Assembly (NCBI GenBank): GCA_964593365.1
Contig: CAZQGQ010000001.1
Location: 178,384 to 242,383, forward strand
Reading direction: 5' to 3'
DNA: 64,000 bases
From: an uncultured Candidatus Saccharibacteria bacterium
GTDB taxonomy: Bacteria; Patescibacteriota; Minisyncoccia; Phycocordibacterales; Phycocordibacteraceae
In this document: in pieces, positions 4,333 through 58,574 of the stretch
How positions within the stretch are numbered: position 1 is the stretch's first letter
Layout of the letters: each line of letters begins with the position of its first letter
The notes under the pieces: model-generated
The model's input: only the letters and a program-made list of their open reading frames with translations
Database searches by the model: none
Told to the model about the DNA's origin: nothing
Made by a program: the position numbers and the translations under genes

Positions 4333-4986
4333 ATGATGCGAATCAGTATCTTCGTAGCACTGCTACTCACTTTTTTTGTTGGATGTATTGGAACCTACTT
4401 TATCCTCACTTCGCGCACCACGGAGGAGGTATCTATACCAACAAATACTGAAGATGGGCGTGTGTGGGTTACGTATTCGTCCATAGTAACTGCAACAACG
4501 ACCACACATGTCTCGGCAAATGGAGAGCCATACTCAATAGCACATTCTGCAGGCTTTAGTATTGCAGTGCCTGTAAGGGAGGCCTACGAAGCTGCCCTTG
4601 AAAGCTATCCCTTTCAAACCTCAATTGAAGTTCAGGATTCAGCGGTAACTTTCAGGGCTCCTGTAGGAACTACAGATTCCGAGTACAACACCTTTATTGC
4701 CCTATATCTTGAGAGAAATGATACGAGCGACTATACAACTCAGGAAAGTTGCGTTATGTGTCAATCCTATGTGAAGGAAGTAAATACTCAGGGAGTTACG
4801 TACTATCGTTATGGCGAGTATCGACGTGGCTTGAATGCACAATATCAGTTTCCAAACATAGATGATGCGGCCACGACGCTTCAGATAACGATTAATTCGC
4901 ATAAGGACTATACCGACGAAGAGATACTAAGAATTTTAAATAGCGTCAAGAAGATAACAGAGACTCAATCTCTTACTCACGACTAG
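4333..4986 (+). CDS. hypothetical N-anchored/secreted protein encoded in a low-GC cassette
   Basis: The ORF annotated from 4216 overlaps tRNA-Asp, so the start is moved to ATG 4333 (MMRISIFVALLL signal/TM). Composition is visibly AT-richer than the flanks. Confidence 0.5.
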   Translation: MMRISIFVALLLTFFVGCIGTYFILTSRTTEEVSIPTNTEDGRVWVTYSSIVTATTTTHVSANGEPYSIAHSAGFSIAVPVREAYEAALESYPFQTSIEVQDSAVTFRAPVGTTDSEYNTFIALYLERNDTSDYTTQESCVMCQSYVKEVNTQGVTYYRYGEYRRGLNAQYQFPNIDDAATTLQITINSHKDYTDEEILRILNSVKKITETQSLTHD

Positions 4987-5070
4987 TAAATTTCACAATT
5001 AGAGACTCTAGAGATAAGTGTCTCCGTGCTTTACAGCTCTAAATCTTAATTCCAACAACGTCCACTAGCT

Positions 5071-5119
5071 CGCGCAAAGTACAAGGCCATCTGAAAGGGT
5101 GGCTTTGTGCGTTATATAC
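5071..5119 (+). repeat. copy 2 of the ~45 nt direct repeat, with an imperfect hairpin (GGGTGGCTTTGTGC 3' arm conserved)
   Basis: 'cgcgcaaagtacaaggccatctgaaagggtggctttgtgcgttatatac' vs 4241-4283 'cgcaaagcacaaagccacccgaaagggtggctttgtgcgtgtatac'. Confidence 0.6.
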
Positions 5120-5127
5120 TCTCAAGC

Positions 5128-5631
5128 ATGACCACCAACCGTCGAAGCCTCTTTTTTGCTTTGGTTCTTATTGCCGTTGTCGTGCTCGGTATCTGGTATC
5201 TTACGAGCGTAAAGAGCGGAGAAGTGCCTGAAGAGACGTGGACGCATGAATATATTCCCTACCCTCACCCTCAATTCGTTCCGCAGTGGCCAAACGAGTT
5301 CCATAATGGTCTCGTCATATCGCCTCAGTCAGCATCAAGCGTAAAGGCGGACCAAGCGTATCTGGAGAGTCCCGGTTTTATTGTCGTGCATCGCGTAGTT
5401 CGGGATTCTCCTGAAGAAGTGTTAGGCGTAAGTTCGTATCTTGCTAATGGCCTTCATAAGGACGTGCCGCTTAATGCTTCTCTTGAGGCAAACTCAATCT
5501 ATTTCGCTTTTCTCTACGCGGATGACGGAGACAGGGTCTTTGACATTACCAAAGACGCAAGACTTAAGTTCTACGACGCGCCGAACAAGACATACCCTGA
5601 AAACCGGGTCGCTCAGTTTGAGACCCTATAA
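5128..5631 (+). CDS. hypothetical N-anchored protein
   Basis: Start moved to ATG 5128 (MTTNRRSLFFALVLIAVVVL TM helix); no known domain. Confidence 0.45.
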   Translation: MTTNRRSLFFALVLIAVVVLGIWYLTSVKSGEVPEETWTHEYIPYPHPQFVPQWPNEFHNGLVISPQSASSVKADQAYLESPGFIVVHRVVRDSPEEVLGVSSYLANGLHKDVPLNASLEANSIYFAFLYADDGDRVFDITKDARLKFYDAPNKTYPENRVAQFETL

Positions 5632-5634
5632 AGA

Positions 5635-6102
5635 TTAGGATGAGGTGCGGTTACTCACGAGAATAAACACGATTGCCAAGACCACGCCAAGAAGGCAGCC
5701 TGCGGCTACCTGAAGTGGCGTATGGACGCCAAGATCGATACGACTCAAACAGATGGCAATCGCTGCAATCGCGCAGGCGCCATAGATTACATGCCGTAGG
5801 GGTTTCTGCATATTCCGTGCGAGGTAGCAAAGCGCAAGCGCAAGGAATACAGATCCGGATGCATGTCCGCTCGGGAACGCATAGCCGGCGGCTTCAATAA
5901 GCGCGTCGTTTGGACGAGGGATACGGAGGGTTTCCTTCAGAATTTGCGTCGAGAGCATGAGACCGAGTGCGCTCATTGCGAAGCAAAACGCCCGTAGCGG
6001 ATTTCGTTTCGATATAAGCCATATAACAATGAGCGCTACAGCGACCAGAAAGCCTTCGGTGCTCGCGATCTTCGTGAAGAGAAATAGGTAGAGAGAATCC
6101 AT
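5635..6102 (-). CDS. PAP2-family phosphatase (phosphatidic acid / undecaprenyl-diphosphate phosphatase-like)
   Basis: PAP2 motifs 'FPSGHAS' and 'SRIDLGVHTPLQV' (SRxxxxxHxxxD) in a multi-TM protein. Confidence 0.8.
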   Translation of the reverse strand: MDSLYLFLFTKIASTEGFLVAVALIVIWLISKRNPLRAFCFAMSALGLMLSTQILKETLRIPRPNDALIEAAGYAFPSGHASGSVFLALALCYLARNMQKPLRHVIYGACAIAAIAICLSRIDLGVHTPLQVAAGCLLGVVLAIVFILVSNRTSS

Positions 6103-6188
6103 GTGTCATCTATTCTAACCTGCGTAGAAATTAACGCGCCTAGGTAAGGTGTTTTCCCATCAGTAGAACTTGGTATACTGCCACCACC

Positions 6189-6893
6189 ATGCCTCCGAAT
6201 GAGAGCTTTGCTGCGCTTCGAAGCAAAAACACAGCGCCGGCATTTCATACGCGCTTCGAAAAGGCGTTTACGTTTATCAAGGGACATGTTGAGGAGCCTG
6301 GAGAGCCGCGTTTGTTCCGTAAAGTGAATATCTCCAAGTTCGACGTCATTCCGCTTGGAGTGCCGGAACGAATGCAGATGCTCATCGATGAATGCGAGAT
6401 ATATCTCGCGATGCCTATGTGGACCGATAAGTTCGGCACGAACCATCATCGAGTGGAAGACGAGGGCGAGCCTGGACGGCGTGATTGGCGCAACGATCCC
6501 GCATCCATTGCCGAATACGGCGCTGACGTCATGAAGGTGCTAAGCGAAGAGAACCGCCTCATGGTCAACAATATGACCAACATCCAGATAGCCGCACGAG
6601 GCCTCTGGAACGCGATGAATAGCACCATAATCGAATCCCCGGACATTGACCGACTCAAAGCCTCCGTCGAGGCTCTCTATCGCGCGTTCGGGGAGCGCGT
6701 TATGACAGAAGAAGAGACCAAAGGCATGACCGACAGGGTTAAGAAGTACATGCGCGAGCAGGTTTTTACTCTCTTCATGACCAAGTACAAAGACTGGCCG
6801 AATCTTGCTGAGGACGGGATAAACGGGAAAGTTCCGTTCGTAAAGGAGTTCAGCGCGAAGCTGCGCGAGTACTTAGACGTCGCTAGCAGCTAG
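6189..6893 (+). CDS. hypothetical protein
   Basis: 234-aa soluble ORF; no family recognised. Confidence 0.4.
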   Translation: MPPNESFAALRSKNTAPAFHTRFEKAFTFIKGHVEEPGEPRLFRKVNISKFDVIPLGVPERMQMLIDECEIYLAMPMWTDKFGTNHHRVEDEGEPGRRDWRNDPASIAEYGADVMKVLSEENRLMVNNMTNIQIAARGLWNAMNSTIIESPDIDRLKASVEALYRAFGERVMTEEETKGMTDRVKKYMREQVFTLFMTKYKDWPNLAEDGINGKVPFVKEFSAKLREYLDVASS

Positions 6894-8053
6894 CGCGTAT
6901 CCTTGAGCCAAAGAGAAGGCAAAAGCCCGAGAAGCATCACGACGCCAAGCGCGATAAAAAGGTACTGAAGCGGGAACGCGAACAGGAAGAGGACGCCGAG
7001 CAGGGGACCGATGATGTAGGCGATAGGCCGGAGCATCCGGTACGCGCTCACTTCGCCCGAGTCTCCGCCGTGCACGTGCTTGAAGAAATACGCTTCGCTC
7101 CCGATATCAAGGAGCGCGGCCCCGACGCGTGTACCAAAGAGTGCGAGTGCCCATACCCAGACGCTCGTAGCGGTAATAAGAGCAAGTGCCGCTACTGCAA
7201 TTGCAGAGAGCACGAAGCCTGTAAGCAGCACCTCCTGTTCGCCCCAGGCAGAGTCCTCAAGGCGACCCACAGGAATCTCAAGCACGAGGAAAGGGATGAG
7301 CATCACCGCAAAGACGATCGCCATATGCTCAAGCGGCATGCCGATGTACTCGTGGAGATAGAGAGGGACATACACGACCATGACCGAATAAAAGATCTGC
7401 AGCAGGAACTGCACGCAAAAGATGCTCTGGAGATCCTTAGAAGCAGAGACCTTTCGGAAGACTGCGGGCCAGTCGGGGCGCTCGTACTCTGCGTCCTGGA
7501 ACTCTCGAAGAAGCCTTCCAGAAATGATCGCAAGCGCGAAGAGCATCAGGGAGCCAACCAGATACACGAATGAGAACGCGCCATTTGCAAGAAGCACGAT
7601 CAGAAGGATCTGCGCCGCTGCCAGTCCTCCGTTGACGAGCGTCACGTACATGCCGCGACGCCCGCCCGTCTTATGGATGTCGCCTGAAACGGTTGCAAGG
7701 AAGATATCGATTAGCACGTAGAGGCTCACCGAAAGCCCGATCGCCGCTGAAAGCAATAACGCGGAGACCAGTGGGATAGTACTCACTGCTACTGCAAAAA
7801 AGAGCGCTCCTGCAGCAACGAAGCCCATGACAAGCAGGTGCCGGTCTCCGAACATGCGAAGCGCGAACGGGACAAGGAGCATGAGAGCAAGCGCGACAGC
7901 GTAGCCCAAGGCTGAGATCATGCCGACGCCCTGGTCGGTAAACCCAAGCTCATCCAGATAGGATGAGTTCAGGAAGATAATGAGCCCGTACTGAAGGCTG
8001 TAGAGAAAGGAAAGTATGAAAATGTTCCTGCGAAGGACGCTTGCAACAGTCAT
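6890..8053 (-). CDS. MFS-type transporter (12 TM)
   Basis: Hydropathy pattern of ~12 TM helices with MFS-like loops; 4-nt overlap with the convergent upstream gene. Confidence 0.65.
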   Translation of the reverse strand: MTVASVLRRNIFILSFLYSLQYGLIIFLNSSYLDELGFTDQGVGMISALGYAVALALMLLVPFALRMFGDRHLLVMGFVAAGALFFAVAVSTIPLVSALLLSAAIGLSVSLYVLIDIFLATVSGDIHKTGGRRGMYVTLVNGGLAAAQILLIVLLANGAFSFVYLVGSLMLFALAIISGRLLREFQDAEYERPDWPAVFRKVSASKDLQSIFCVQFLLQIFYSVMVVYVPLYLHEYIGMPLEHMAIVFAVMLIPFLVLEIPVGRLEDSAWGEQEVLLTGFVLSAIAVAALALITATSVWVWALALFGTRVGAALLDIGSEAYFFKHVHGGDSGEVSAYRMLRPIAYIIGPLLGVLFLFAFPLQYLFIALGVVMLLGLLPSLWLKDTR

Positions 8054-8096
8054 GACTCTCCTTATTCTAGCACCTGACTTCCGCTACTTCTGCGTG

Positions 8097-8462
8097 CTAC
8101 TGGCCGCTACCTTCTTTGCGGATAGCATCGAACTCGCGTTCAAACGTATCGATGACCTCGTCGCTGCCGTCCTCGATATCGATGAGCTGGTTTCGCGCTG
8201 AGTCGATAGCCTTGATGAGCTCGTCGAGCTTGAGGTGCACGGCATGCGCATCGCGGTTCTGGGTGTTCTGAATGAGGAACACCATGAGGAAGGTAAGGAT
8301 TGTCGTACCTGTGTTCACCATGAGCTGCCAGGTGGTAGAGAAATGGAACACGGGTCCCAAGACTGCCCAGAGCACAATGAGTGAAAAGGCGACGACAAAC
8401 GCCCACGGGGATCCGGTAACGCCGCTCGTCCAGTGAGCTACTCTTCGAAATAGGTCATGCAT
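8097..8462 (-). CDS. small membrane protein of the low-affinity iron permease (Fet4-like) / DUF1003-type family
   Basis: 'TGTTILTFLMVFLIQNTQNRDAHAVHLKLDELI' resembles the conserved core of these small bacterial permease-like proteins. Confidence 0.45.
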   Translation of the reverse strand: MHDLFRRVAHWTSGVTGSPWAFVVAFSLIVLWAVLGPVFHFSTTWQLMVNTGTTILTFLMVFLIQNTQNRDAHAVHLKLDELIKAIDSARNQLIDIEDGSDEVIDTFEREFDAIRKEGSGQ

Positions 8463-8567
8463 ATGCCCACATCATACCAGCTTCATAAGAGAGAGGGCCT
8501 GTTATCCGACCGAGCAAAAGATTGAAATAACCCCGTAAATTGGTTAGGATTCCCAAGTTCGCATCTA

Positions 8568-10896: not shown

Positions 10897-11268
10897 ATGG
10901 CAGGCAATAACGGACGTAATGGACCTCCCCCTCCACCAAAACCCCTAGAAGATTGGGAGCGAATCGATAGGATACGGCGCATTCTTGAAGATCTCGAGCA
11001 GGAGGATCAGCACCAAGAGCAGAGTATTGCGTCGCAGGAAGAGCAGGTTGCAATCGATGAGAGCGAGACAAAGCGCCTTTATGATTCATGGGCAGGCGTG
11101 CCGGAGGGGAAAGAAAAGTTTAAGAAGAGCATGGAAGAGCATATTGCCGCCAAGCGGAAAGAGATCGCGCGCCGTCGCGAGGTGCTTAAGGAAAGCAAAG
11201 AAGGGATAAAGAAGTTGAAGGAGGAGCTTGAGCAAATCGCTCGAAACCTTGATGTAACCAAGCACTAG
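10897..11268 (+). CDS. hypothetical coiled-coil protein with N-terminal poly-Pro tract
   Basis: 123-aa charged helical ORF ending 5 nt before prfB, in the -1 frame relative to it. Confidence 0.4.
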
Positions 11269-11279
11269 GATTGTTTTCT

Positions 11280-12158
11280 ATGGCCGACGAAACAGTTAAT
11301 CCCCGCATTCTTGAGATTGAAGTGATGATGATGGAGCCCGATTTCTGGGCGGACAAAGACGCTGCGCAGAAAATCGTGCGCGAGTACCAGGCGTTGAAAG
11401 ACGGAGGCACGGGAGACCCGCTTCAAGACGGGGACGCGACGCTTGCAGTTCTTGCGGGAGCTGGCGGAGACGACGCGGAAGATTTTGCCGCGATGCTAAA
11501 ACGCATGTACGAAGGGTACGCGAAGATAAAAGGATGGGGCGTACGCTTACTAGATGAGAACGAGAACTCGCAGGGCGGATATCGAAGCGTTCTGCTTGAG
11601 ATCAAAGGTTCTGGCGTATACGGCCGTCTGAAGCATGAGGCGGGCGTGCATCGCCTTGTCCGCATCTCTCCTTTTAATGCAAACGATAAGCGTCAGACGT
11701 CCTTTGCGATGGTCGAGGTGCATCCGACGGAAGCTCCTAAAGATAAGATCGAGCTTAAGGCCGATGACCTCGACATCCAGTTCGCGCGCTCAGGAGGGGC
11801 AGGCGGACAGAACGTAAACAAACGAGAGACCGCAGTACGCATCGTGCACACCCCGACGGGGATAAGCGCTCACGTCTCAAGCGAGCGGAGCCAACTGGCT
11901 AACCGAGAGAAGGCCATGGAGCTCGTGAAGGCAAAGCTCTACAAGCTTCAGGAGGAAGAGCGTGAAGCGGAGACCGCAGGACGCACGCTTTCTAAGACGA
12001 CGGCGAACGAATGGGGCAGCCAGCGCCGTTCCTACGTCCTCCACCCCTATAAGATGGTGAAAGACCACGCCTCAGGGCACGAATCGGGGAATCCGGATGC
12101 GGTATTAGCTGGTGAGCTTGATGATTTTATAGACGCAGCTTCCGCGGGTGGGGTATAA
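11280..12158 (+). CDS. prfB: peptide chain release factor 2 (short form, no canonical +1 frameshift site)
   Basis: GGQ motif '[11 protein letters not shown]' and the RF2-specific 'SPF' tripeptide. ATG 11280 has AGGA 9 nt upstream (an alternative TTG start is at 11271). An in-frame TGA at 11250 blocks upstream extension. Confidence 0.8.
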
Positions 12159-12168
12159 TGCACCGGAC

Positions 12169-12849
12169 ATGATTTATTTCGACAATGTGACGAAGACGTA
12201 CCGCGACGGTACTCCCGCTCTTGATGAGATAACGCTCTCCATCTCTCCAAAAGAATTCGTCTCCATTGTCGGACACTCGGGCGCAGGCAAGACAACGCTC
12301 CTCAAGATGCTTCTCGTTGAGGATCATCCAACTACAGGCTCTGTCTTTTTTGAATCGACCGACATACATACGCTTCCGAAGAACTCCCTCCACCACTATC
12401 GCCGCAAGATCGGCACCGTCTTCCAGGATTTCCGCTTGATCCCGCACCGAACTGCCTACGAGAACATCGCGTTTGCGATGGAAGCCGCAGGACGCGCAGA
12501 CGATGAGATCGCGTCAGACGTTCCCTACATTCTTGATCTCGTTGACCTTGGAGATAAGGCGAATCATTTCCCTAACCAGCTCTCCGGAGGGGAGCAGCAG
12601 CGCGTTGCGATCGGCCGCGCGATCATCAACCAGCCGGACGTTATCGTCGCGGATGAGCCGACCGGAAACTTGGATCCGGTTAACACTTATGACGTCATTG
12701 AAATCTTGAAGAAGATTAACGAGCTCGGCACGACCGTCATCATCACGACGCACAATAAGGGCGTCGTTGATTCTGTCGGCAAGCGCGTCATCACGATGGA
12801 CAAGGGACGCGTGGTGCGAGACGACGCTAACGGCCGCTATAGCCTATAA
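12169..12849 (+). CDS. ftsE: cell division ATP-binding protein FtsE
   Basis: Walker A 'GHSGAGKTT', ABC signature 'LSGGEQQR', Walker B 'ADEPTGNLD'; immediately upstream of ftsX. Confidence 0.85.
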
Positions 12850-12851
12850 CT

Positions 12852-13778
12852 ATGAACTGGATGACCCTCAAGCGAATTGCAATTAACGGAGCGAGAAGCT
12901 TCGCGAGAAGCGGTGCGGTTTCGTTTGCGACCGTGCTCATCATGACCGTTACCTTGGGCATCATCGGCCTCTTGGTATTCTTGTCTGCTCTTTTGACCTA
13001 CACGCTGAACGAAATCAAGGATAAAGTCGACGTCAACATCTACTTTGCTACAAGCGCTGCAGAAAGCGACATCGTCGCGCTCCAGAAGGATTTGACTGAG
13101 CTTCCTGAAGTCGAGCGCGTTACCTATACCTCTCGCGAACAAGCACTCGAGGAGTTCCGCGAGCGCCATGCTGGCGATCAGCTCACCCTCCAGGCCCTCG
13201 AAGAGCTTGGTGATAACCCCCTTGGGGCCTCCCTTGCTGTTAAGGCCAAGGATCCTTCCCAGTACGAGCGCATCGTTACGTTCCTTGAGGATGAGCCTGC
13301 GCTCTCAGGAGATGGCACATCGATCATCGACCGCGTGAACTATTTCCAGAATAAGCTCGTGATTGACCGCCTCACAGGCGCTATCCGGGCAACGGAAGCC
13401 GCAGGCGCCCTCATCGTCATACTCTTTGCGCTTGCCTCAGCGGTCATCACCTTTGCTACCGTTCGTCTTGCCATCTACACGACTCGAGACGAGATCGGGG
13501 TCATGCGCCTCATGGGAGCCTCGAACTTCTTCATTCGCGGTCCGTTCATCGTGACGGGCATCATGGCAGGCGTTATCGCAGCCGTCATCGTCCTGGTCGC
13601 CCTCTATCCGATCTCCTGGTACGCAGGATCTGCGACAGCATCATGGCTTGGCGGATTCAACGTCTTCACGTACTACACTGCAAACTTCCCGCTCTTCTTC
13701 CTGACGCTTGTAGGAGCAGGTGTGTTGCTTGGAGGACTCGCAAGCTTCTTCGCCGTCCGTCGGTATCTCAAGATCTAA
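12852..13778 (+). CDS. ftsX: cell division permease FtsX
   Basis: 4-TM topology with a large periplasmic loop; directly follows ftsE. Confidence 0.8.
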   Translation: MNWMTLKRIAINGARSFARSGAVSFATVLIMTVTLGIIGLLVFLSALLTYTLNEIKDKVDVNIYFATSAAESDIVALQKDLTELPEVERVTYTSREQALEEFRERHAGDQLTLQALEELGDNPLGASLAVKAKDPSQYERIVTFLEDEPALSGDGTSIIDRVNYFQNKLVIDRLTGAIRATEAAGALIVILFALASAVITFATVRLAIYTTRDEIGVMRLMGASNFFIRGPFIVTGIMAGVIAAVIVLVALYPISWYAGSATASWLGGFNVFTYYTANFPLFFLTLVGAGVLLGGLASFFAVRRYLKI

Positions 13779-17575: not shown

Positions 17576-17646
17576 TGCGAGATCGTCTAATGGTAGGACA
17601 ACGGACTCTGAATCCGTTTATCTAGGTTCGAATCCTAGTCTCGCAG
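17576..17646 (+). tRNA. tRNA-Gln (CUG)
   Basis: Acceptor tgcgaga/tctcgca, anticodon stem-loop acgga-cuCUGaa-tccgt, T-arm ctaggttcgaatcctag. Confidence 0.7.
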
Positions 17647-17658
17647 CAGTCATGAATA

Positions 17659-17726
17659 CCCTGTCTGGTGACCTAGACAGGTAACAGTCCGAAACGACCC
17701 GTCTAATGACCTAGACGGGTCGTTTC
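17659..17726 (+). repeat. two tandem hairpins sharing the loop core GACCTAGAC (7-bp stem and 15-bp perfect stem) between tRNA-Gln and the island
   Basis: cCTGTCTggtGACCTAGACAGg and GAAACGACCCGTCTAatGACCTAGACGGGTCGTTTC. Confidence 0.55.
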
Positions 17727-17851
17727 GTTCTATCTACACAAACTACGAAGATAGGTGCTCTTAACGCTATGGGTCAATAGAGATCCATTTATATGGGATC
17801 TTTATTGTGATAGAATTACTGGAAGGTTATATTCAGTAGCCTAACAATTTT

Positions 17852-19390
17852 ATGAGTAAAAAAGACAACAAGAAGACACTCAAAGTCCCTGCACTTAGGG
17901 TGAATCAGTGGCTAAAGAAGTGGGACGGTATTAAGTGGGATATCGGACAACACAGAAGGAAGCCGGAGAACTGTTTCTATGTTTTTTCGCTGTCAGCAAA
18001 GCAACTCAGAGCTCTTTCAGGTGTTTATAGGCGAGATACGCAAACGCGTACTGGTCTGCAAAGAACCCATGAGCCAAAGCGATCCGAGAATATCGGTAAG
18101 TACGTTAAATATGGATACCCTTGGTCTGACTTAACAGACGATCAGAGAAAGGAAGGGCGTTTTGATCATTTACAGAAACCGGGATGGCTACCTACAGCAA
18201 TTGTGGTAAACATTCTTACAAAGGACGATTCACGCAATGGGAAAAAAGTTGCAGCTGAAGATTTGATCAAAATCATAAGTGACACACAAAAAAATACTCA
18301 AATAGAGCTTCCAAAATCATTTACAAATTCTGAAACATGGAAAGTAAAACAGGAACGCCCCATCGAGATTATTGATGGGCAACATCGCTTGTTGGCTTTT
18401 GACGATGACGAGATATCCGGTGATTACGAATTACCAGTAGTTGCATTTTATGGACTGGATATTAGTTGGCAGGCATATCTATTTTGGACGATCAACATTA
18501 AGCCAAAACGAATCAACCCAAGTTTAGCTTACGATCTTTATCCATTACTGCGTACAGAGGAATGGTTGGAGCAGTTTGAAGGGCATAAAGTTTACAGAGA
18601 AGTTAGGGCACAGGAACTTGTTGAAATGCTTTGGTCAGAAGAGAAGAGTGCATGGTATCGAAGAATTAATATGTTGGGAGAAAGTGGCGGCCCTTCAGTT
18701 ACTCAGGCTGCGTGGATTCGAGCTCTTACTAAAACTTTTATCAAATCATTTGAGGGAGGAAAGAAAAATAAAATTGGAGGATTGTTTGGTGCGCCGGTTG
18801 GAAAAGACAAAATTGCAATTCCTTGGAATCGCGCTCAGCAAGGAGCGTTGTTGATCCATTTATGGAATGAGATAAGTGAGGCCGTTGAAAATTCCAAAGA
18901 AAGATGGGTAAAGGAGCTTCGTGATAAAAAGAAACAAGAATACAAGCGAGGGATTGATGGAGATGTTGCTTTATTCGGGCCGTATTCGTTGTTGACTAAT
19001 GACCAAGGTGTCTCCGTGGTTCTAAATATTAGCAATGACCTCCTCTTTCTGGAGAAAGACAAGCTTAACCTACAGGAGTGGGAATTTGATGCCGAGGGTA
19101 GCGTTACCGAAGCGCTCAGTTCACTTACAAAAAAACAAAAAAAGTTATCAGAATACGTATCTCGTCTCGCTAAAGCGATAGCAACTTTTGACTGGAGAAC
19201 ATCTGCAGCTGTGGGCTTAACGGAAAATGAACGGACGCAGAAACTTTCTTATAGAGGTGGTAGTGGGTATAAGGAATTTCGCAGGCAACTTCTTAAGCAT
19301 CTTATCAATGATGCTCATTTTGGTGACTCTGCAAAGGAGATCTATCAAGCTCTAGGATATGCCAAGGAAGACACCAAAAAAATCAAATAA
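17852..19390 (+). CDS. DGQHR-domain protein (DndB-like, ParB/sulfiredoxin fold)
   Basis: Signature 'EIIDGQHRLLAF'; low-GC gene, first in a four-gene overlapping operon. Confidence 0.65.
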   Translation: MSKKDNKKTLKVPALRVNQWLKKWDGIKWDIGQHRRKPENCFYVFSLSAKQLRALSGVYRRDTQTRTGLQRTHEPKRSENIGKYVKYGYPWSDLTDDQRKEGRFDHLQKPGWLPTAIVVNILTKDDSRNGKKVAAEDLIKIISDTQKNTQIELPKSFTNSETWKVKQERPIEIIDGQHRLLAFDDDEISGDYELPVVAFYGLDISWQAYLFWTINIKPKRINPSLAYDLYPLLRTEEWLEQFEGHKVYREVRAQELVEMLWSEEKSAWYRRINMLGESGGPSVTQAAWIRALTKTFIKSFEGGKKNKIGGLFGAPVGKDKIAIPWNRAQQGALLIHLWNEISEAVENSKERWVKELRDKKKQEYKRGIDGDVALFGPYSLLTNDQGVSVVLNISNDLLFLEKDKLNLQEWEFDAEGSVTEALSSLTKKQKKLSEYVSRLAKAIATFDWRTSAAVGLTENERTQKLSYRGGSGYKEFRRQLLKHLINDAHFGDSAKEIYQALGYAKEDTKKIK

Positions 19391-20717
19391 CACCTTTCCT
19401 TCGAATGCATATTCAAGGGAAGCGACCCAGGCAACCTTCAATAGACTGAAGGCTTATCTTGATGATGATCGCTGGCTTGCGCGAGGGAATCGATATGCGA
19501 TCAAATGTGTTGATCGTATTCGAAAGGACTATAAGCAAGACTCTAGAACGAAAGTAATTACAAACGATATAGTCGAGAAGCATCTTGCTGAATATATAGC
19601 TGCTTCTGCGCCTGTCCACGCAATAGATGGGTGGGGTTTTTTAGGGAAAGCAATCGCAAGTCACTCAATTGGAGATATTGAGGCATGTAAGCATTTTGCT
19701 TATTATGCGCAGCTTCGAGCTGTCATGTCACTGATGGCCAGTGAAGGTATTGGAGTTTTTGATAACAAGCATTTTGCAATAAAGAATGCGGATCGGAGAA
19801 CTTCGTCTGTGACAGCCCCGAAAAAGAGTTCCACGCATGATTTTGCAGGTTCGCAGTTTAGATCATGGGCAAAATCAAAGAGTTCCGGAGCTCTGCTTGA
19901 GAAGATAATTCGACCCAGAGGTATCTCTCTTGAGGAATGGTTTAAGGAAATTTCACCAACAAAAGTTAGTTGGCTGGCTCAAGACTGGCTTGATCATTGG
20001 GGATATGACTTAAATAAATTTAAGAAAGATCAAGATGCTCGAAACAGAGCAAGTTATAGACCAACAATTCTAGACCGTGACTTAAATTATCGAAACGCTT
20101 CAGTTGTAAGTGACTCGATTGAACTTGTGGATGCGATCTGGAGAATGTGTTCACCTGATAGCGTCGGTGGTTTCAGCCTGGATTTGCAGCTAATGAGAGT
20201 TAGTTGGGATGAATATTCGCGTATGAGAGGAACGACTCCGACTCGAGCTGATAGAGAAAAGGTTTTAAGTGACTTAGGTATCTTGCAACCAGAATTAGGT
20301 AATCTAGTCGACTTTTTTGAACGTACAACTTCATCCGTAGATTCAATCATCTTAACTGAAGCACGTAAGAAAGGTTCACCCGAAGATGTCGATTATCACT
20401 CGCAAATGCTATGTCGTGCCACAATTCTGCTACGTCTTGCCACTGGGGCATCAGCTTCTCTTATAGCAAAGGCTAAGTTCGATAAGGATGATTTGAAGTT
20501 TTGGTCAGATTTTGTTGGTGAGAACTCGGGCTTGTGGGAGTCAGGTGCTCCAAACCCTATTACAGATATGTGGAACGAAGTTGAAGAAGCTTTGCATGAC
20601 CTCAACGTTAAAGCACCCTCAATTAATAATCATTATAAATGGCGTTCTGAACTCGCAAATGAAGTACTGACCTTGTCTGGGTGTGAGCGTATTGGTTTAG
20701 CCCGATTTTGCCTATGA
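19359..20717 (+). CDS. hypothetical protein, no recognisable domain (island component 2)
   Basis: 452 aa; 32-nt overlap with the upstream gene and 10-nt overlap with the downstream one. Only a weak P-loop-like 'GWGFLGKA'. Confidence 0.5.
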   Translation: MPRKTPKKSNNTFPSNAYSREATQATFNRLKAYLDDDRWLARGNRYAIKCVDRIRKDYKQDSRTKVITNDIVEKHLAEYIAASAPVHAIDGWGFLGKAIASHSIGDIEACKHFAYYAQLRAVMSLMASEGIGVFDNKHFAIKNADRRTSSVTAPKKSSTHDFAGSQFRSWAKSKSSGALLEKIIRPRGISLEEWFKEISPTKVSWLAQDWLDHWGYDLNKFKKDQDARNRASYRPTILDRDLNYRNASVVSDSIELVDAIWRMCSPDSVGGFSLDLQLMRVSWDEYSRMRGTTPTRADREKVLSDLGILQPELGNLVDFFERTTSSVDSIILTEARKKGSPEDVDYHSQMLCRATILLRLATGASASLIAKAKFDKDDLKFWSDFVGENSGLWESGAPNPITDMWNEVEEALHDLNVKAPSINNHYKWRSELANEVLTLSGCERIGLARFCL

Positions 20718-21961
20718 AATACATGGGCTCAAAACGTTATATGTTAAATAACGGTCTTGGTACTTTGATACGAGATCAGTTACCTCATGCTAACAGGGTG
20801 ATAGATCCATTTTGTGGAGCAGGATCAGTAATTCAATTTGCAGCAAAGAATTCTGATAAGGAGATAATTGCCGGCGATCTTCAGCAGTATGCAATTGTAC
20901 TCGCAAGGGCTGTTATTGAACGTACAAAGCCAGTTGATGTGCCTATGTTACAGACTAGTTGGTTACTTAAGGCGGAAGAACAACTGTCGAGATCTAAGCT
21001 TTTTCTGCAAGCAAAGAAGAACGACATTAATTATTCCCAAAATGTAGAAGAGTGGGTAAAAAAATCTCGCCAACTATGTGAGATTCCTTCAAAGATTGGA
21101 CCTGTATGGGGTGCTTACGGTGGTCATTACTTCAGTCCTAAGCAAGCGCTTATTATTGATTATCTTATTAAGTGTTTGCCTGAGAAGACCACTGACCGGA
21201 ATGTCTGTTTAGCTGCCCTGATAACTGCAGCTTCAAGATGTGCTGCAGCTCCGGGACATACAGCCCAGCCTTTTCAACCTACTGAAGGTGCTTCTAAGTT
21301 TATAAAGATCTCTTGGAACATGGATGTGCTCAAGTCTTGTTTAAATGCTTTGACTGAGATCGCACCGCTACATGCCAAAACAAATGGTGCTGCATATGTT
21401 GGAAGCGCTGAGAAGCTCACACAAAAAATGCAAAAAGGAGATCTGGTAATAATTGACCCTCCTTATTCAGGGGTACAATATAGTCGTTTTTATCATGTAT
21501 TAGAGACCATCGCGCGTGGCAAATGCGGAAAGGTAGAAGGGGTAGGGCGTTATCCTGTATTGTCAGAGCGCCCTCAGTCGTCTTTTAGTAATGTTGGTCA
21601 ATCTGTCGAAGCTCTCGATATTCTTCTAAAAAAGTTATCAGAGAGAGAAGTTGTCGTAATTTTTACTTTCCCTAAGGGCGATTGCAGTAACGGTTTATCC
21701 GGAAAGGTGATTGCAGACAGTGCAAAAAAGTATTTCACAATAGATAAAAAGAGCAGAACACACCATCATGTAGTGAAGGGTAAGTTCAGCACTTTAGGTG
21801 GAAATAATAAACTTAAACTAAAAAACAACGAGGTTAAAAGATCTCGAGTGACCTCTGAGGAGCTTATCCTCCTTCTTAAGCCGAGAGTATCAAAGTCAGT
21901 ATCACGTAGCAAACAAAAACAAAAGATAAAAACACGTAAGAGCTATGCACAATATCGGTAA
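20708..21961 (+). CDS. D12-class (Dam-like) N6-adenine DNA methyltransferase with a Lys-rich C-terminal tail
   Basis: 'YMGSKRYML' (cf. KWAGGKR), 'DPFCGAGSV' (FxGxG) and catalytic 'IIDPPYSG' (DPPY). Confidence 0.7.
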   Translation: MPMKYMGSKRYMLNNGLGTLIRDQLPHANRVIDPFCGAGSVIQFAAKNSDKEIIAGDLQQYAIVLARAVIERTKPVDVPMLQTSWLLKAEEQLSRSKLFLQAKKNDINYSQNVEEWVKKSRQLCEIPSKIGPVWGAYGGHYFSPKQALIIDYLIKCLPEKTTDRNVCLAALITAASRCAAAPGHTAQPFQPTEGASKFIKISWNMDVLKSCLNALTEIAPLHAKTNGAAYVGSAEKLTQKMQKGDLVIIDPPYSGVQYSRFYHVLETIARGKCGKVEGVGRYPVLSERPQSSFSNVGQSVEALDILLKKLSEREVVVIFTFPKGDCSNGLSGKVIADSAKKYFTIDKKSRTHHHVVKGKFSTLGGNNKLKLKNNEVKRSRVTSEELILLLKPRVSKSVSRSKQKQKIKTRKSYAQYR

Positions 21962-22823
21962 AAAGATAACTATATATCTCGTTACAGGACTTCCAAAAGG
22001 AGTTCGAGAGGCCCGTATCGATCAGTGGAGTGGTAAAGCAGTTTGCGGTCCTCGAAACGCATTAAAAGAGATAATCGCTTTGCCTGAAGTTGAGTCGGGC
22101 GCATGTATATATTTTCTTATAGGCATTCCAGATGACGGAGGGTTGCTTGATGTATATGTTGGAGAAGCAGATGGGTTTAAAGAAAGAATTAAACACCATG
22201 ACTACAAGAAAGAGTGGTGGCAAGACGTTGTAGTATTTGTCAGTCAAGATAAATCACTTACAAAAACGGGAATTCAGTATCTTGAGAGTGTTTGTATCGA
22301 GCGTCTAAAGCAGATTGGCAAATGTAATCTTAAGAATGGTAATAGTCCCTCTCTACCTACAACGCCTAAGGAAGACTTAAGTGGTCTCGAACTGTTTTAT
22401 ATGAATCTTGCAACAATTATGCCCTTGCTTGGTTATGATATCTTTGTTCAAAACGAAAAATCACCTGGTAAGAATACGGTAGAGAGTCCAGTTTTTACGT
22501 GCAAGAAAGGAGTGAATATTGTTGCGGAAGCATATTTACTCGAAGATGGAAAAATGCGTGTTTTAAAAGGGTCAAAAGCGTCAGCAGAAGAAACACCTTC
22601 TTTTCAAAGCCATCCATATAAAAAACTAAAAAATGAGTTAATAAAAATCAATCGCTTGGTACCTCAAGGTGACATTCTTATCTTTTCTGATGATTACGTT
22701 TTTGACAGCTCAAGCGCTGCATCAGCCGTTATACAAGCTCGATCTTCACCGGGACCTATAGAATGGAAACTGAAAAAGGGAGGTAAAACTTTGAGAGAGT
22801 ATCTAAACTCAAAGATTCAATGA
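21945..22823 (+). CDS. GIY-YIG nuclease domain protein with a C-terminal DUF4357-like domain
   Basis: 'ACIYFLIGIPDDGGLLDVYVGEADGFKERIKHH' fits GIY-(10-11 aa)-YIG plus the Arg/Glu pattern; 17-nt overlap with the methyltransferase. Confidence 0.55.
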   Translation: MHNIGKKITIYLVTGLPKGVREARIDQWSGKAVCGPRNALKEIIALPEVESGACIYFLIGIPDDGGLLDVYVGEADGFKERIKHHDYKKEWWQDVVVFVSQDKSLTKTGIQYLESVCIERLKQIGKCNLKNGNSPSLPTTPKEDLSGLELFYMNLATIMPLLGYDIFVQNEKSPGKNTVESPVFTCKKGVNIVAEAYLLEDGKMRVLKGSKASAEETPSFQSHPYKKLKNELIKINRLVPQGDILIFSDDYVFDSSSAASAVIQARSSPGPIEWKLKKGGKTLREYLNSKIQ

Positions 22824-23651: not shown

Positions 23652-24077
23652 ATGTCACATTCAGCAACTGCATCAACCATTATCAACGCCCCCAAGGAGA
23701 AGGTTTGGGACGCCCTTACCAAGCCTGAGCAGGTAAAGGAGTACTTCTTCGGGACAGATCTCGTCACTACCTGGGAGCCAGGAAGCCCGGTGTATTTCAG
23801 GGGCGAGTGGGAAGGGAAGAAATACGAGGATAAGGGAACAGTGCTCACCTTCAACCCGCCCGAGAGCATGTCGTATGACTACTGGAGCAACTTAAGCGGA
23901 GACGAGGATATCCCTGAAAACTACCAGCTCCTTTGCTACACCCTGGAGGACGTTCCAGAGGGTACGAAAGTAACGATCGATCAGTCGAACGTGGACACGC
24001 AAGAACGCGCTGATCACTCAGCGGAGAACTGGAAGGGGGTCCTCAAAGGACTGAAGTCGTTTGTTGAAGGAGCTTAG
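23652..24077 (+). CDS. SRPBCC-superfamily protein (AHSA1/polyketide-cyclase-like)
   Basis: 'INAPKEKVWDALTKPEQVKEYF' typical of AHSA1/START-like folds. Confidence 0.55.
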   Translation: MSHSATASTIINAPKEKVWDALTKPEQVKEYFFGTDLVTTWEPGSPVYFRGEWEGKKYEDKGTVLTFNPPESMSYDYWSNLSGDEDIPENYQLLCYTLEDVPEGTKVTIDQSNVDTQERADHSAENWKGVLKGLKSFVEGA

Positions 24078-24277
24078 GCTCGCTTCACGTTGCCTGCGTA
24101 CGGGCCCTTCTTGCTCGGGATCACAGTGAAGGTGACTTTGTCGCCTACCTTGAGTTCCTTGAAGTCGACTCCGACGACGGCATCTGCATGGAAAAACAGT
24201 CGGTCCTTGAGACCTACGCGCTTGATGAAACCTGATGATCGGTCGCCGAGTTCAGCGATAACGCCTTTGTTGTGCAT
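24074..24277 (-). CDS. cold-shock domain protein
   Basis: 67 aa, 'GVIAELGDRSSGFIKR..FFH' cold-shock-domain RNP motifs. Confidence 0.75.
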   Translation of the reverse strand: MHNKGVIAELGDRSSGFIKRVGLKDRLFFHADAVVGVDFKELKVGDKVTFTVIPSKKGPYAGNVKRA

Positions 24278-24343: not shown

Positions 24344-24544
24344 TTAGACGCGGCTGACGCGAACTGCCTTGGGTCCTTTCGGGCCCTCCTCAACTTCGAA
24401 AGTCACCGAGTCGCCCATCTGAAGTTCTTCGAACTTCACGTTCACGAGTTCGTTGAGGTGGAAGAAGAGATCTTTTTCCACTCCGTCTCGCTTGATGAAG
24501 CCGAAGCCTTTTTCAGTCAGGCCCGCAATTGTTCCTTGCTGCAT
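24344..24544 (-). CDS. cold-shock protein (CspA family)
   Basis: 'KGFGFIKRDGVEKDLFFH' canonical RNP1/RNP2 motifs. Confidence 0.85.
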   Translation of the reverse strand: MQQGTIAGLTEKGFGFIKRDGVEKDLFFHLNELVNVKFEELQMGDSVTFEVEEGPKGPKAVRVSRV

Positions 24545-56639: not shown

Positions 56640-58574
56640 TTATACTCCGATCAAGACCGGGATAACCATCGGTGCCTTGTTGGTTCGAGAGAACAGATAG
56701 CCTGCCATGGTGTCGGTAAGCTGGTTCTTCACGAAATCAAGGTCAACCGGGTTCATTCCCTCAGTCGAGTCCTCGACTGTCTTCTTGATGAGAAGGCGGG
56801 CTTGGTTCAGAAGATCCTGAGACTCTCGCAGATAGATGAATCCGCGGGAGATGATATCAGGGGACTTCCGCAGTTTGCCGGTCTTTAGGTGCACGGTCGC
56901 GATGATGACGAACATGCCGTCCTTGGCGAGCATCTGGCGGTCGCGGATCACGACCTCCTGCATGTCGCCGATGGCGAATCCGTCGACAATCAACGGAGCG
57001 TTTGGCACCTTATCCTTGTGGATCATGAGGCGCTCGCCGTCCACGATGTCGATCACCATGCCGTTATCGGCAAGGACGATGTTCTCGCGAGGGAAGCCTG
57101 CCTGCTCGACTGCCTTTGCGTGTGAGCTTGTCATAGAGTAGTAGCCGTACGCTGGCATGAAGAACTTCGCGTTCACCTGCTTGTTGATCCAGACCAACTC
57201 TCCGGTTTGTCCGTGTCCTGTGGAGTGCACGTCAGAGGAGCGGTAATGGATCAGGGTGACCTTGTTGCGGAAGAGGTTATCCTTCAAGCGCTGCACGGCG
57301 ATCTCGTTTCCAGGAATAACCGATGACGAGAGCACGATAGTATCTCGCTCGTTAAGCGTGATGCTCTTGTGCTGCTTGGTTGCGATGCGCATAAGCGCTG
57401 CGAATTCCTCACCCTGCGCGCCTGTTGCCAAGACGACGATCTTGTCTGGCGGATAATCGCCTATCTCGGTCGCGGGGACAACGGTTCCCTTGGCGATCTT
57501 GAGGAGGCCGGTCTTCTCTGCGATCTCAAGGTTCGTCTTGATCGAACGGCCTTCCATAACCACCTTCTTCCCGAGTCGCTCGGCGATCTGGATGATATGG
57601 ATCATGCGCTCGAACTGGGACGCGAAGGTGCCGATAATGAGGCGTCCTTTCACCGTCTTCACGATCTCCTCCAAGGTCTCATGGACCTTTCGTTCGGGGA
57701 TCGAGAAGCCGTCCTTCTCGGCGTTTGTTGAGTCTGCAATAAAGAACAGGTTGTTGTCCTTTCCGATCTCGCCCCACTTCTTGGCTTCTGCTTCAGTGGC
57801 GACGCCATCGACATGGTCGAGCTTCAAGTCTCCTGTCGCAACGACGTTGCCGTAGGGCGTCTCGATCGAGATACCCATCGAGTCAGGGATAGAGTGCGTG
57901 ACTGGGAAGAACTTCACTCGTGTTCCTCCAATGGTGTGCGTTGACCCAGGCTCAACCACCACGAGGTTTGGAGCGGGCATCTCAGGATATTCTTCCTGAC
58001 GCTTCTGGATCATCACGGCAGAAAGGTTCTGCGTGTAGATAGGGGGGTTCCCGAATCGGTTCATGAGGAACGGGATGCCGCCGATGTGGTCGAGGTGGCC
58101 GTGGGTAATGAAGACCGCGCGTACGCGTTCTTGGTTCTTCTCAAGGTAACTGGTGTTAGGGAGCATGTAGTCGACGCCTGGAGCCGTGTCTTCGGAGACG
58201 AACTGGAAGCCCACGTCGCAGACGAAGATATCGTTGCCGCTTTCAACGGCAAACATGTTGCGTCCCACTTCCTCGACGCCGCCAAGAGGCACGATGCGAA
58301 CGACGTTTGGTGCGACTGGGTCAGGGAAGTAATCAGCTACTTTTCGGACTGTTGGGGCCGAGGGGGATCGGCGCATGCCGCCGCGGCGCATGTCGCGCTG
58401 CTTTCCTCCGGATCGTCCGCCTGCTGCGCGAGGTCCTCCGGTTCGAGGTCCGCGAGACGGGCCCTGGGGCCCTGCTCCGCGATTGCCGCGGAAGGGAGGG
58501 CGTCCACCTGCCTGATCGCCGCCTTGGCGGGAATCTGGAGCGGGTGCTGGGGCCGGTGCTGGTGCAAAGTTCAT
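56640..58574 (-). CDS. rnj: ribonuclease J (metallo-beta-lactamase/beta-CASP) with ~90-aa N-terminal RG-rich extension
   Basis: 'FITHGHLDHIGG' HxHxDH motif, beta-CASP and C-terminal domains; N-terminus 'PAPAPAPAP..RGNRGAGPQG'. Confidence 0.85.
   Translation of the reverse strand: MNFAPAPAPAPAPDSRQGGDQAGGRPPFRGNRGAGPQGPSRGPRTGGPRAAGGRSGGKQRDMRRGGMRRSPSAPTVRKVADYFPDPVAPNVVRIVPLGGVEEVGRNMFAVESGNDIFVCDVGFQFVSEDTAPGVDYMLPNTSYLEKNQERVRAVFITHGHLDHIGGIPFLMNRFGNPPIYTQNLSAVMIQKRQEEYPEMPAPNLVVVEPGSTHTIGGTRVKFFPVTHSIPDSMGISIETPYGNVVATGDLKLDHVDGVATEAEAKKWGEIGKDNNLFFIADSTNAEKDGFSIPERKVHETLEEIVKTVKGRLIIGTFASQFERMIHIIQIAERLGKKVVMEGRSIKTNLEIAEKTGLLKIAKGTVVPATEIGDYPPDKIVVLATGAQGEEFAALMRIATKQHKSITLNERDTIVLSSSVIPGNEIAVQRLKDNLFRNKVTLIHYRSSDVHSTGHGQTGELVWINKQVNAKFFMPAYGYYSMTSSHAKAVEQAGFPRENIVLADNGMVIDIVDGERLMIHKDKVPNAPLIVDGFAIGDMQEVVIRDRQMLAKDGMFVIIATVHLKTGKLRKSPDIISRGFIYLRESQDLLNQARLLIKKTVEDSTEGMNPVDLDFVKNQLTDTMAGYLFSRTNKAPMVIPVLIGV

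Follow-up and report, generated by a model that had tools for sequence, protein, structure and literature searches.

An adenine-methylase operon in a low-GC island of a Saccharibacteria genome, with a GIY-YIG–RAMA nuclease as its probable optional member

Four consecutive genes, called A, B, C and D in what follows, lie in a stretch of 64,000 nucleotides from an uncultured Candidatus Saccharibacteria bacterium (GenBank assembly GCA_964593365.1, contig CAZQGQ010000001.1, positions 178,384 to 242,383 of the forward strand), and it is this whole stretch that we call the window. They code respectively for a DGQHR/DndB-like protein, an all-alpha protein, a DNA adenine methyltransferase and a protein with a GIY-YIG nuclease domain (Table 1). 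The reading frames overlap at each junction, by 32 nucleotides (nt) between A and B, by 4 nt (ATGA) between B and C and by 17 nt between C and D; a terminator-like hairpin stands upstream of the first gene; and the guanine-plus-cytosine (GC) content drops by about 12 points, from about 0.53 on both flanks to 0.39-0.43 between 17.8 and 23.0 kb. We therefore conclude that these four co-directional genes form one translationally coupled operon (17852-22823). Public gene calls for the exact sequence of the window show the identical four genes. An earlier, sequence-only reading had singled out positions 20708 to 22823 as a restriction-modification-like (R-M-like) pair inside the island. The pair does lie in the low-GC stretch and its 17-nt overlap was found again, but two genes are not the unit: those coordinates cover half of the operon, and A and B accompany C. 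The conserved unit is the A-B-C trio, and the C-D pair is the 3' half of a four-gene operon. D itself is most likely an accessory nuclease, an optional plug-in effector, and not a partner in the style of Eco29kI.

Table 1. Features of the operon and its surroundings in the window (positions count from the first letter of the window), with one example of a D locus from another genome
Feature	Position	Strand	Description
Gene A	17852..19390	+	512 amino acids (aa); DGQHR/DndB-like, ParB/Srx superfamily, motif IDGQHRL
Gene B	19359..20717	+	452 aa; all-alpha, no sequence family
Gene C	20714..21961	+	415 aa; D12-class (alpha-order) N6-adenine DNA methyltransferase, distinct long subfamily
Gene D	21945..22823	+	292 aa; GIY-YIG nuclease and DUF4357/RAMA-type domain
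D, N-terminal domain	21945..22439	+	residues 1-165; GIY-YIG nuclease fold with conserved N-terminal beta extension
D, C-terminal domain	22482..22823	+	residues 180-292; DUF4357, RAMA-type fold, likely DNA-binding
tRNA-Gln (CTG)	17576..17647	+	found by ARAGORN; low-GC island starts directly past its 3' end
Hairpin	17690..17727	+	perfect 16-bp stem and T-rich tail (repeat and terminator scans); terminator-like, would separate tRNA-Gln from the operon
Promoter matches	17788..17833	+	two overlapping sigma-70-like matches, about 20-60 nt upstream of gene A
AlwI-type cassette with D (class 2 example)	L025:10001-16546		RadC/JAB-D12 fusion of about 602 aa, second D12 methylase of 301 aa, RE_AlwI of 505 aa

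The product of gene C matches the MethyltransfD12 family PF02086 with 69.2 bits (E-value 6.1e-19, cut-off 22) and carries VIDPFCGAGS and IIDPPYSG, which bears out the D12 motifs already noticed in the sequence. Across 30 aligned homologues, motif I (D31-P-F-C-G-A-G, that is D31-x-F33-x-G35) and D248-P-P-Y251 are invariant, and so are several blocks specific to the subfamily: APGHTAQPFQPT, SRFYHVLE, GVGRYP, CSNGLSG and FSTLGGN. The motifs come in the alpha order, motif I being followed by the target-recognition region and then by motif IV. The term "Dam-class" proposed earlier can be kept solely in the broad D12 sense, because the score is far under the cut-off of the Dam subfamily (33.5 bits against 114.85 for TIGR00571; 19.1 against 441 for PRK10904). 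The start had been placed at 20708, which is a TTG and the first possible start of the open reading frame (ORF); the ATG at 20714 is likelier, because it forms the ATGA overlap with the stop of B, because the public call has 415 aa and because the homologues begin with MKYMGSKR. The Lys-rich sequence noticed at the C-terminus (KQKQKIKTRK) is indeed present, in a Lys/Arg-rich tail of about 21890-21961 past the last conserved block LLLKP[KR]. One homologue, 92% identical, stops right past LLLNPKA, and in the others the tail is variable in length or missing. Since the tail is not conserved even in so close a relative, we attach no significance to it.

Gene A codes for a protein which matches the DGQHR model TIGR03187 with 81.8 bits (E-value 6.6e-23, cut-off 58.85) and PF14072 with 34.6 bits (cut-off 29.1), and which stays far under the equivalog cut-offs, reaching 60.7 bits against 450 for DndB and 29.9 against 300 for DpdB. 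It is probably a DNA-binding component dependent on nucleoside triphosphates (NTPs); a DndB-like protein is known to bind ATP/GTP. The arrangement recalls DndB in the Dnd systems, DpdB in Dpd and SspE in Ssp, where mobile defence islands likewise pair a DGQHR/ParB-fold protein with an enzyme that modifies DNA. It differs from them in that the modifying enzyme here is a D12 adenine methylase, that A lies below the equivalog cut-offs and that dndACDE, dpdA and ssp genes are absent from the neighbourhood.

Gene B has no match among the families of Pfam, NCBIfam, PADLOC and PHROGs. None of its 139 homologues, which are about 440-455 aa long, has a Pfam domain, and at least 376 relatives were confirmed in one metagenome scan. 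The predicted structure is nearly all alpha-helical (predicted local distance difference test, pLDDT, 91.1; predicted template modelling score, pTM, 0.92), and no structural relative of the whole chain was found. The residues H87, D90, R120, H160, D217, D224, R228, S232, Y233 and R353 are invariant, while H112 (49 of 51 sequences) and H138 (48 of 51) nearly are. B is probably an enzyme. One of its helical subdomains is HEPN-like, by a weak resemblance in which R228-N-x-A-S-Y233 occupies the place of the HEPN motif R-x4-6-H. There is no histidine at +4 to +6, so that the Rx4-6H catalytic motif is missing. The assignment of B to HEPN is not justified. Searches of solved structures with the sequences of A, B and C gave no match.

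We then anchored a survey on B, with 80 metagenomic loci, where each count takes in only the loci with enough flanking sequence. A lies directly upstream of B in all 54 loci, and a long D12 methylase directly downstream of it in 32 of 52. Another co-directional gene follows B in 8 of these 52 loci, and the five of them that were tested are all short D12 methylases, so that a D12 methylase follows in at least 37. Some of the loci without a methylase downstream have one upstream: either a D12 or N6_N4 methylase, or a candidate methylase adjoined by the gene of a BglII-type endonuclease. D occurs within three genes of B in 4 of 51 loci. Look-ups anchored on C gave DndB-B-C in 3 of 3 cases and D in none. 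This means that the pairing of A with B is obligate, that a D12 methylase usually adjoins them and that D is rare there. The picture comes close to an orphan methylase, which the sequence-only reading had regarded as the one at odds with its proposal. Because D is near the trio in so few loci, and because its position varies (before A or after C), we take it to be optional.

The trio is found on a 30,952-bp plasmid of Zymomonas mobilis, pZZM405 (L181, NC_013788.1, record positions 4808-8470), where it adjoins a DUF4433/macro-domain gene pair that we read as DarT/DarG-like, and on matching plasmids of the strains CP4 and NRRL B-12526. It also occurs on Rhizobium tumorigenes pRt932, on a conjugative element of Herbiconiux ginsengi and on nine IMG/VR viral contigs. 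Its defence neighbours are type I R-M, AbiE, Abi_2, AIPR, GmrSD, DarTG-like and toxin-antitoxin genes. In one trio locus without D (L088), the gene after the methylase (10901-13774) codes for 957 aa and gives ORC/CDC6-like and weak Kdo-kinase-like matches. Its product could be an alternative fourth component; the same element holds integrases, AbiE and ArdC. A further DGQHR-methylase module may exist in a pathogen: a study of clinical lineages of Mycobacterium abscessus names four clade-specific accessory genes, two of which code for a DGQHR protein and a DpnIIA-type adenine methylase (PMC9248903). The methylome of Z. mobilis ZM4 comprises three N6-methyladenine (m6A, also written 6mA) motifs only, all assigned to other enzymes (PMC8432527). 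We drew no conclusion on the trio methylase from it, since the sequenced strain was not shown to carry the 30,952-bp plasmid; if it does carry it, the trio methylase would be silent in culture.

Gene D codes for the nuclease. Its AlphaFold model, built on an alignment of 35 sequences (pLDDT 89.5, pTM 0.81), consists of two domains with a disordered linker between them (residues 171-177). In this model, the N-terminal domain has a confident GIY-YIG fold and the C-terminal one a RAMA fold as in MPND and CcrM; the succession of GIY-YIG domain, linker and likely DNA-binding domain resembles that of I-TevI. In CcrM, the RAMA domain is within the methylase itself, while here a RAMA-type domain is fused to a nuclease. 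The motif had been read as GIY, ten residues and YVG, together with a conserved Arg and Glu. GIY does not occur literally: 14 residues separate C54-I-Y56 from Y71-V-G73. The Arg and Glu are there as R81 and E114, and the whole catalytic set (Y56, Y71, G73, R81, E114, N131), whose absence on alignment would have spoken against the proposed pair, is present and invariant in 35 homologues of 47-78% identity. Since these residues are invariant and the predicted fold is that of GIY-YIG proteins, it is plausible that D is an active nuclease.

Sequence profiles reach this family unevenly. DUF4357 is detected in all 35 members (E-value 6.7e-15 for D of the window), RAMA in 15 (best E-value 5.9e-6) and the GIY-YIG family PF01541 in 3 (best E-value 1.1e-3). 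For D of the window, PF01541 gave no match to the N-terminal domain even at an E-value of 10, and RAMA (PF18755) gave 16.3 bits (E-value 0.0094), below its cut-off of 35.2. The full-length family is by contrast a listed one: D matches the PADLOC candidate PDC-S14 (PDLC04923, 1e-80 over residues 4-291; PDLC04925, 7e-80) and phrog_12629, whose function is not annotated (5.9e-57). A search for relatives of D gave none among viral contigs and two weak matches among phage genomes.

A second survey was anchored on D and covers 80 loci, with one genome per species. It relied on ORF calling and profile searches, since tblastn with the proteins of the window was too insensitive. In a first class of about 12 loci, where D is 51-74% identical to that of the window, the neighbours are a DGQHR gene (in one locus, L014, ParB_N in its place), a B gene coding for either a long (about 450 aa) or a short (about 285 aa) protein, and a D12 methylase. 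An Omnitrophica contig from a separate look-up brings the count to about 13. The hosts of these adjacent C and D genes are Patescibacteria lineages, Planctomycetes, Firestonebacteria and unclassified bacterial metagenome-assembled genomes (MAGs), besides the Omnitrophica contig. The order is shuffled: a genome of the Patescibacteria has D-A-(285 aa)-C, and the Omnitrophica contig has (176 aa)-A-C-D, adjoining a Type I R-M system. A homology between long and short B could not be demonstrated, as hhalign gives it a probability of 0.15% and only D..RN.A[SN]Y aligns.

These loci bear on the simplest reading of the pair, a classical two-gene Type II R-M system in which D would cut at specific sites like Eco29kI or Cfr42I and C would be its cognate protector, A and B being unrelated neighbours or regulators. 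Such a reading has the overlapping frames of C and D for it, as well as their adjacency in about 12 of 80 species-level loci, the intact catalytic set of D and the fact that no other nuclease domain is recognised by sequence in the operon of the window. Eco29kI, Cfr42I and Hpy188I, too, have the GIY-YIG fold and residues, and their genes adjoin a DNA methyltransferase. We nevertheless judge a classical pair to be quite improbable. It is disfavoured most strongly by the fact that D is rare beside methylases of the C family, which nearly always come with A and B, and by the coexistence of D relatives with other endonucleases: they stand beside RE_AlwI or a Type III Res, or without any nearby methylase candidate (21 of 49 loci). 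The gene order varies, with D sometimes before A, and the RAMA domains of the solved structures of MPND and CcrM, which touch the DNA backbone without base-specific contacts (PMC9963953), fit site-specific recognition poorly. What stands of the R-M-like pair is thus the link of D to adenine-methylation modules, and most likely not an Eco29kI-style partnership, the C-family methylases being usually without D.

A second class, of about 20 loci, contains more distant D proteins (33-38% identity) followed in this order by a RadC/JAB-D12 fusion, a second D12 methylase, RE_AlwI and an AAA_15 ATPase. The five genes amount to D added to a complete R-M system of AlwI type. One example is given in Table 1, and similar cassettes were seen in L026-L029, L032-L035, L039, L040, L042, L043, L045 and L047; the hosts are Patescibacteria, MAGs labelled Gammaproteobacteria, Planctomycetes and one Woesearchaeota archaeon. 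The fusion of RadC/JAB to a methylase is unusual. Elsewhere, D is found with Type III-like genes (ResIII with N6_N4_Mtase, or Res with RE_endonuc), with a 1326-aa T5orf172-ResIII-Eco57I protein (Type ISP-like), with Type I genes and with defence-island genes (AAA_15/21, AbiJ, reverse transcriptases).

That D accompanies complete R-M systems of several types, which need no extra endonuclease, is what one would expect of a guard or abortive-infection nuclease comparable to PrrC and RloC: held in check by methylation or by an R-M complex, D would be freed by phage anti-restriction factors and would degrade DNA non-specifically. A RAMA-type domain without sequence specificity in the solved structures would suit such a role, the conserved N-terminal extension could serve for docking, and back-up suicide nucleases linked to modification systems have been proposed (Makarova 2013; 2024 Dnd reappraisal). 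As with D, the rlo genes and PrrC/RloC of Type I loci are extra nuclease genes within or appended to R-M operons. PrrC and RloC are however anticodon RNases with ATPase domains, not DNases, whereas D is a GIY-YIG protein of DNase type, and there are solitary D genes without any partner to restrain them. We consider this explanation unlikely.

The solitary genes also matter for the next possibility. Of 49 loci, 28 have a methylase candidate within 4 kb of D and 21 have none. In loci with long flanks, such a candidate is found within 4 kb in 21 of 34, compared with 8 of 34 in a control shell at 5-9 kb, an enrichment of D in the vicinity of methylases. RAMA domains fused to URI (GIY-YIG) and other nucleases were predicted to be parts of N6-adenine R-M systems (Iyer, Zhang, Aravind 2016, PMC4738411), while the New England Biolabs (NEB) group counts fusions of GIY-YIG with RAMA among the candidates for 6mA-dependent enzymes of Type IV (PMC11037411). 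Along the latter line, D would read 6mA in foreign contexts through its RAMA domain, independently of C, and its linkage to methylases would come from the clustering of defence genes. Fusions of DUF4357 to Type IV proteins of the GmrSD and McrB types are known as well (PMC4619093, PMC11090510), and D genes do occur alone, PADLOC filing PDC-S14 as a single-gene candidate. A 6mA-dependent nuclease beside 6mA writers of many classes would however risk cutting the DNA of its own host, and the preference of RAMA for 6mA, reported for MPND, was not reproduced in one study (PMC9963953). The overlapping frames, the clade-specific partners and the correlation between C and D argue for a functional coupling. 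A Type IV role for D therefore seems improbable to us.

This correlation was calculated on eight trio loci, where the pairwise identities of C and those of D give r = 0.70. A neighbour-joining tree of D places most trio-linked proteins in one clade and the AlwI-linked ones in a separate deep clade; those of the D-first trio loci branch apart, with D proteins from other contexts in between. From the tree and the correlation, we conclude that D was inherited stably with a given partner but switched partners several times. One could think here of a history outside defence, in which A-B-C would be a regulated orphan methylase module, serving anti-restriction or epigenetic control in mobile elements, and D a selfish GIY-YIG gene, similar to a free-standing homing endonuclease, that inserted next to it. 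The trio does occur on plasmids, on a conjugative element and on viral contigs, fusions of a ParB fold to a methylase are enriched in prophages, with a suggested anti-defence role (PMC12704722), and D combines an I-TevI-like layout with several changes of genomic context. Still, unlike mobile homing genes, the clades of D have kept to the same type of partner through deep divergence. Phage and viral collections contain D only rarely, and the neighbours of the trio are mostly defence genes. We regard this history as very unlikely.

There remains the reading that we favour, to which we give a chance somewhat short of even: a methylation-linked operon in which D would be a cutting arm gated by methylation or by a protein complex. 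C would write m6A on the resident DNA. A, acting with B, would be the methylase's conserved partner, in the role of a regulator or of a sensor and effector, as the analogy with DndB, DpdB and SspE suggests. D would supply, or add, the DNA-cutting arm, tethered to the DNA through its RAMA/DUF4357 domain, and its activity would be controlled by the methylation state or by A-B-C as a complex, with the result that incoming DNA lacking the mark would be cut. Various D subfamilies may join AlwI-type, Type III, Type ISP-like and Type I systems in the same manner. A coupling of this kind is preferred to chance clustering because the frames overlap and because the D clades are faithful to their partner type. 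The enrichment of D near methylase candidates, the published prediction for URI+RAMA proteins, the defence genes around the trio and the match to PDC-S14 also speak for it. Gene content, catalytic motifs, folds and the conservation of linkage are what the analysis shows; the substrate, the direction in which methylation would be discriminated, the contacts between the proteins and an anti-phage activity are what we infer here.

Several observations weigh against this picture. More than 90% of the trio loci are without D; the trio must therefore work without it, and the contribution of D may be unrelated. Three close relatives of D (in L012, L021 and L022) have no methylase candidate within 4 kb, and many D proteins accompany systems which already have an endonuclease, RE_AlwI or a Type III Res, so that the data do not require a methylation-gated cutting. 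The disputed 6mA preference of RAMA mentioned above counts here as well. Neither an integrase nor att-type direct repeats were found that would explain the mobility of the island. Finally, a scan of the 64-kb window for the avoidance of short palindromes, whose power is low at this length, gave no restriction footprint: only CTAG and ATAT are avoided, while GATC is not, its ratio of observed to expected counts being about 1, which is uninformative. Avoidance of CTAG and ATAT is common across bacterial genomes.

The link between GIY-YIG-RAMA proteins and adenine methylases is already known as a published prediction, and the family of D is a listed PADLOC candidate. With the published URI+RAMA proteins and PDC-S14, D shares the same two domains, a full-length match and the same association with N6-adenine methylases; it differs from the prediction (PMC4738411) in its partner, which is here the DGQHR-B-D12 trio. 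The trio itself is common, and it may be new. It is absent from PADLOC-DB 2.0.0, where A matches only DpdB, weakly, and B gives no match, and we found no description of it as a system in open-access full text. One may go further and see in DGQHR-B-D12, with or without D, a new class of methylation-based defence carried by plasmids, conjugative elements and prophages, in which a ParB-fold NTPase and a HEPN-like enzyme would replace the restriction endonuclease and D would be one of several interchangeable add-ons. We consider this wider proposal less likely than not.

Some features of the surroundings should be added. The low-GC island beside tRNA-Gln is horizontally acquired. Just past this tRNA, one can notice by eye two hairpins (17660-17727, forward strand), whose loops both contain TGACCTAGAC, the second being the perfect 16-bp stem of Table 1; they may be a pair of terminators or a small repeated element at the border of the island. 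The sigma-70-like matches upstream of A (Table 1) make weak evidence for a promoter, such matches being no more numerous in this region than in shuffled sequence. Just outside the island, on the reverse strand, lies a gene with a lysyl-oxidase domain (PF01186; 24672-25583), and two tandem cold-shock-domain genes (24074-24277 and 24344-24544) follow it. To our knowledge, lysyl oxidase domains are uncommon in bacteria. Further away, ARAGORN reports a 104-nt "tRNA-Phe" with an insertion (58179-58282, reverse strand), which looks protein-coding by eye and is probably a false positive.

The PDC-S14 family is widespread and the published views of it conflict, since it is taken either for the restriction arm of N6-adenine R-M systems or for a 6mA-dependent Type IV enzyme. 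The operon described here offers a compact context for deciding between these roles of GIY-YIG-RAMA proteins. Should the trio prove to be a defence system, it would tie adenine methylation to the ParB/DGQHR partners of phosphorothioate and deazaguanine modification. It could also be an unrecognised barrier to transformation in the bacteria which carry it, for instance in Z. mobilis CP4.

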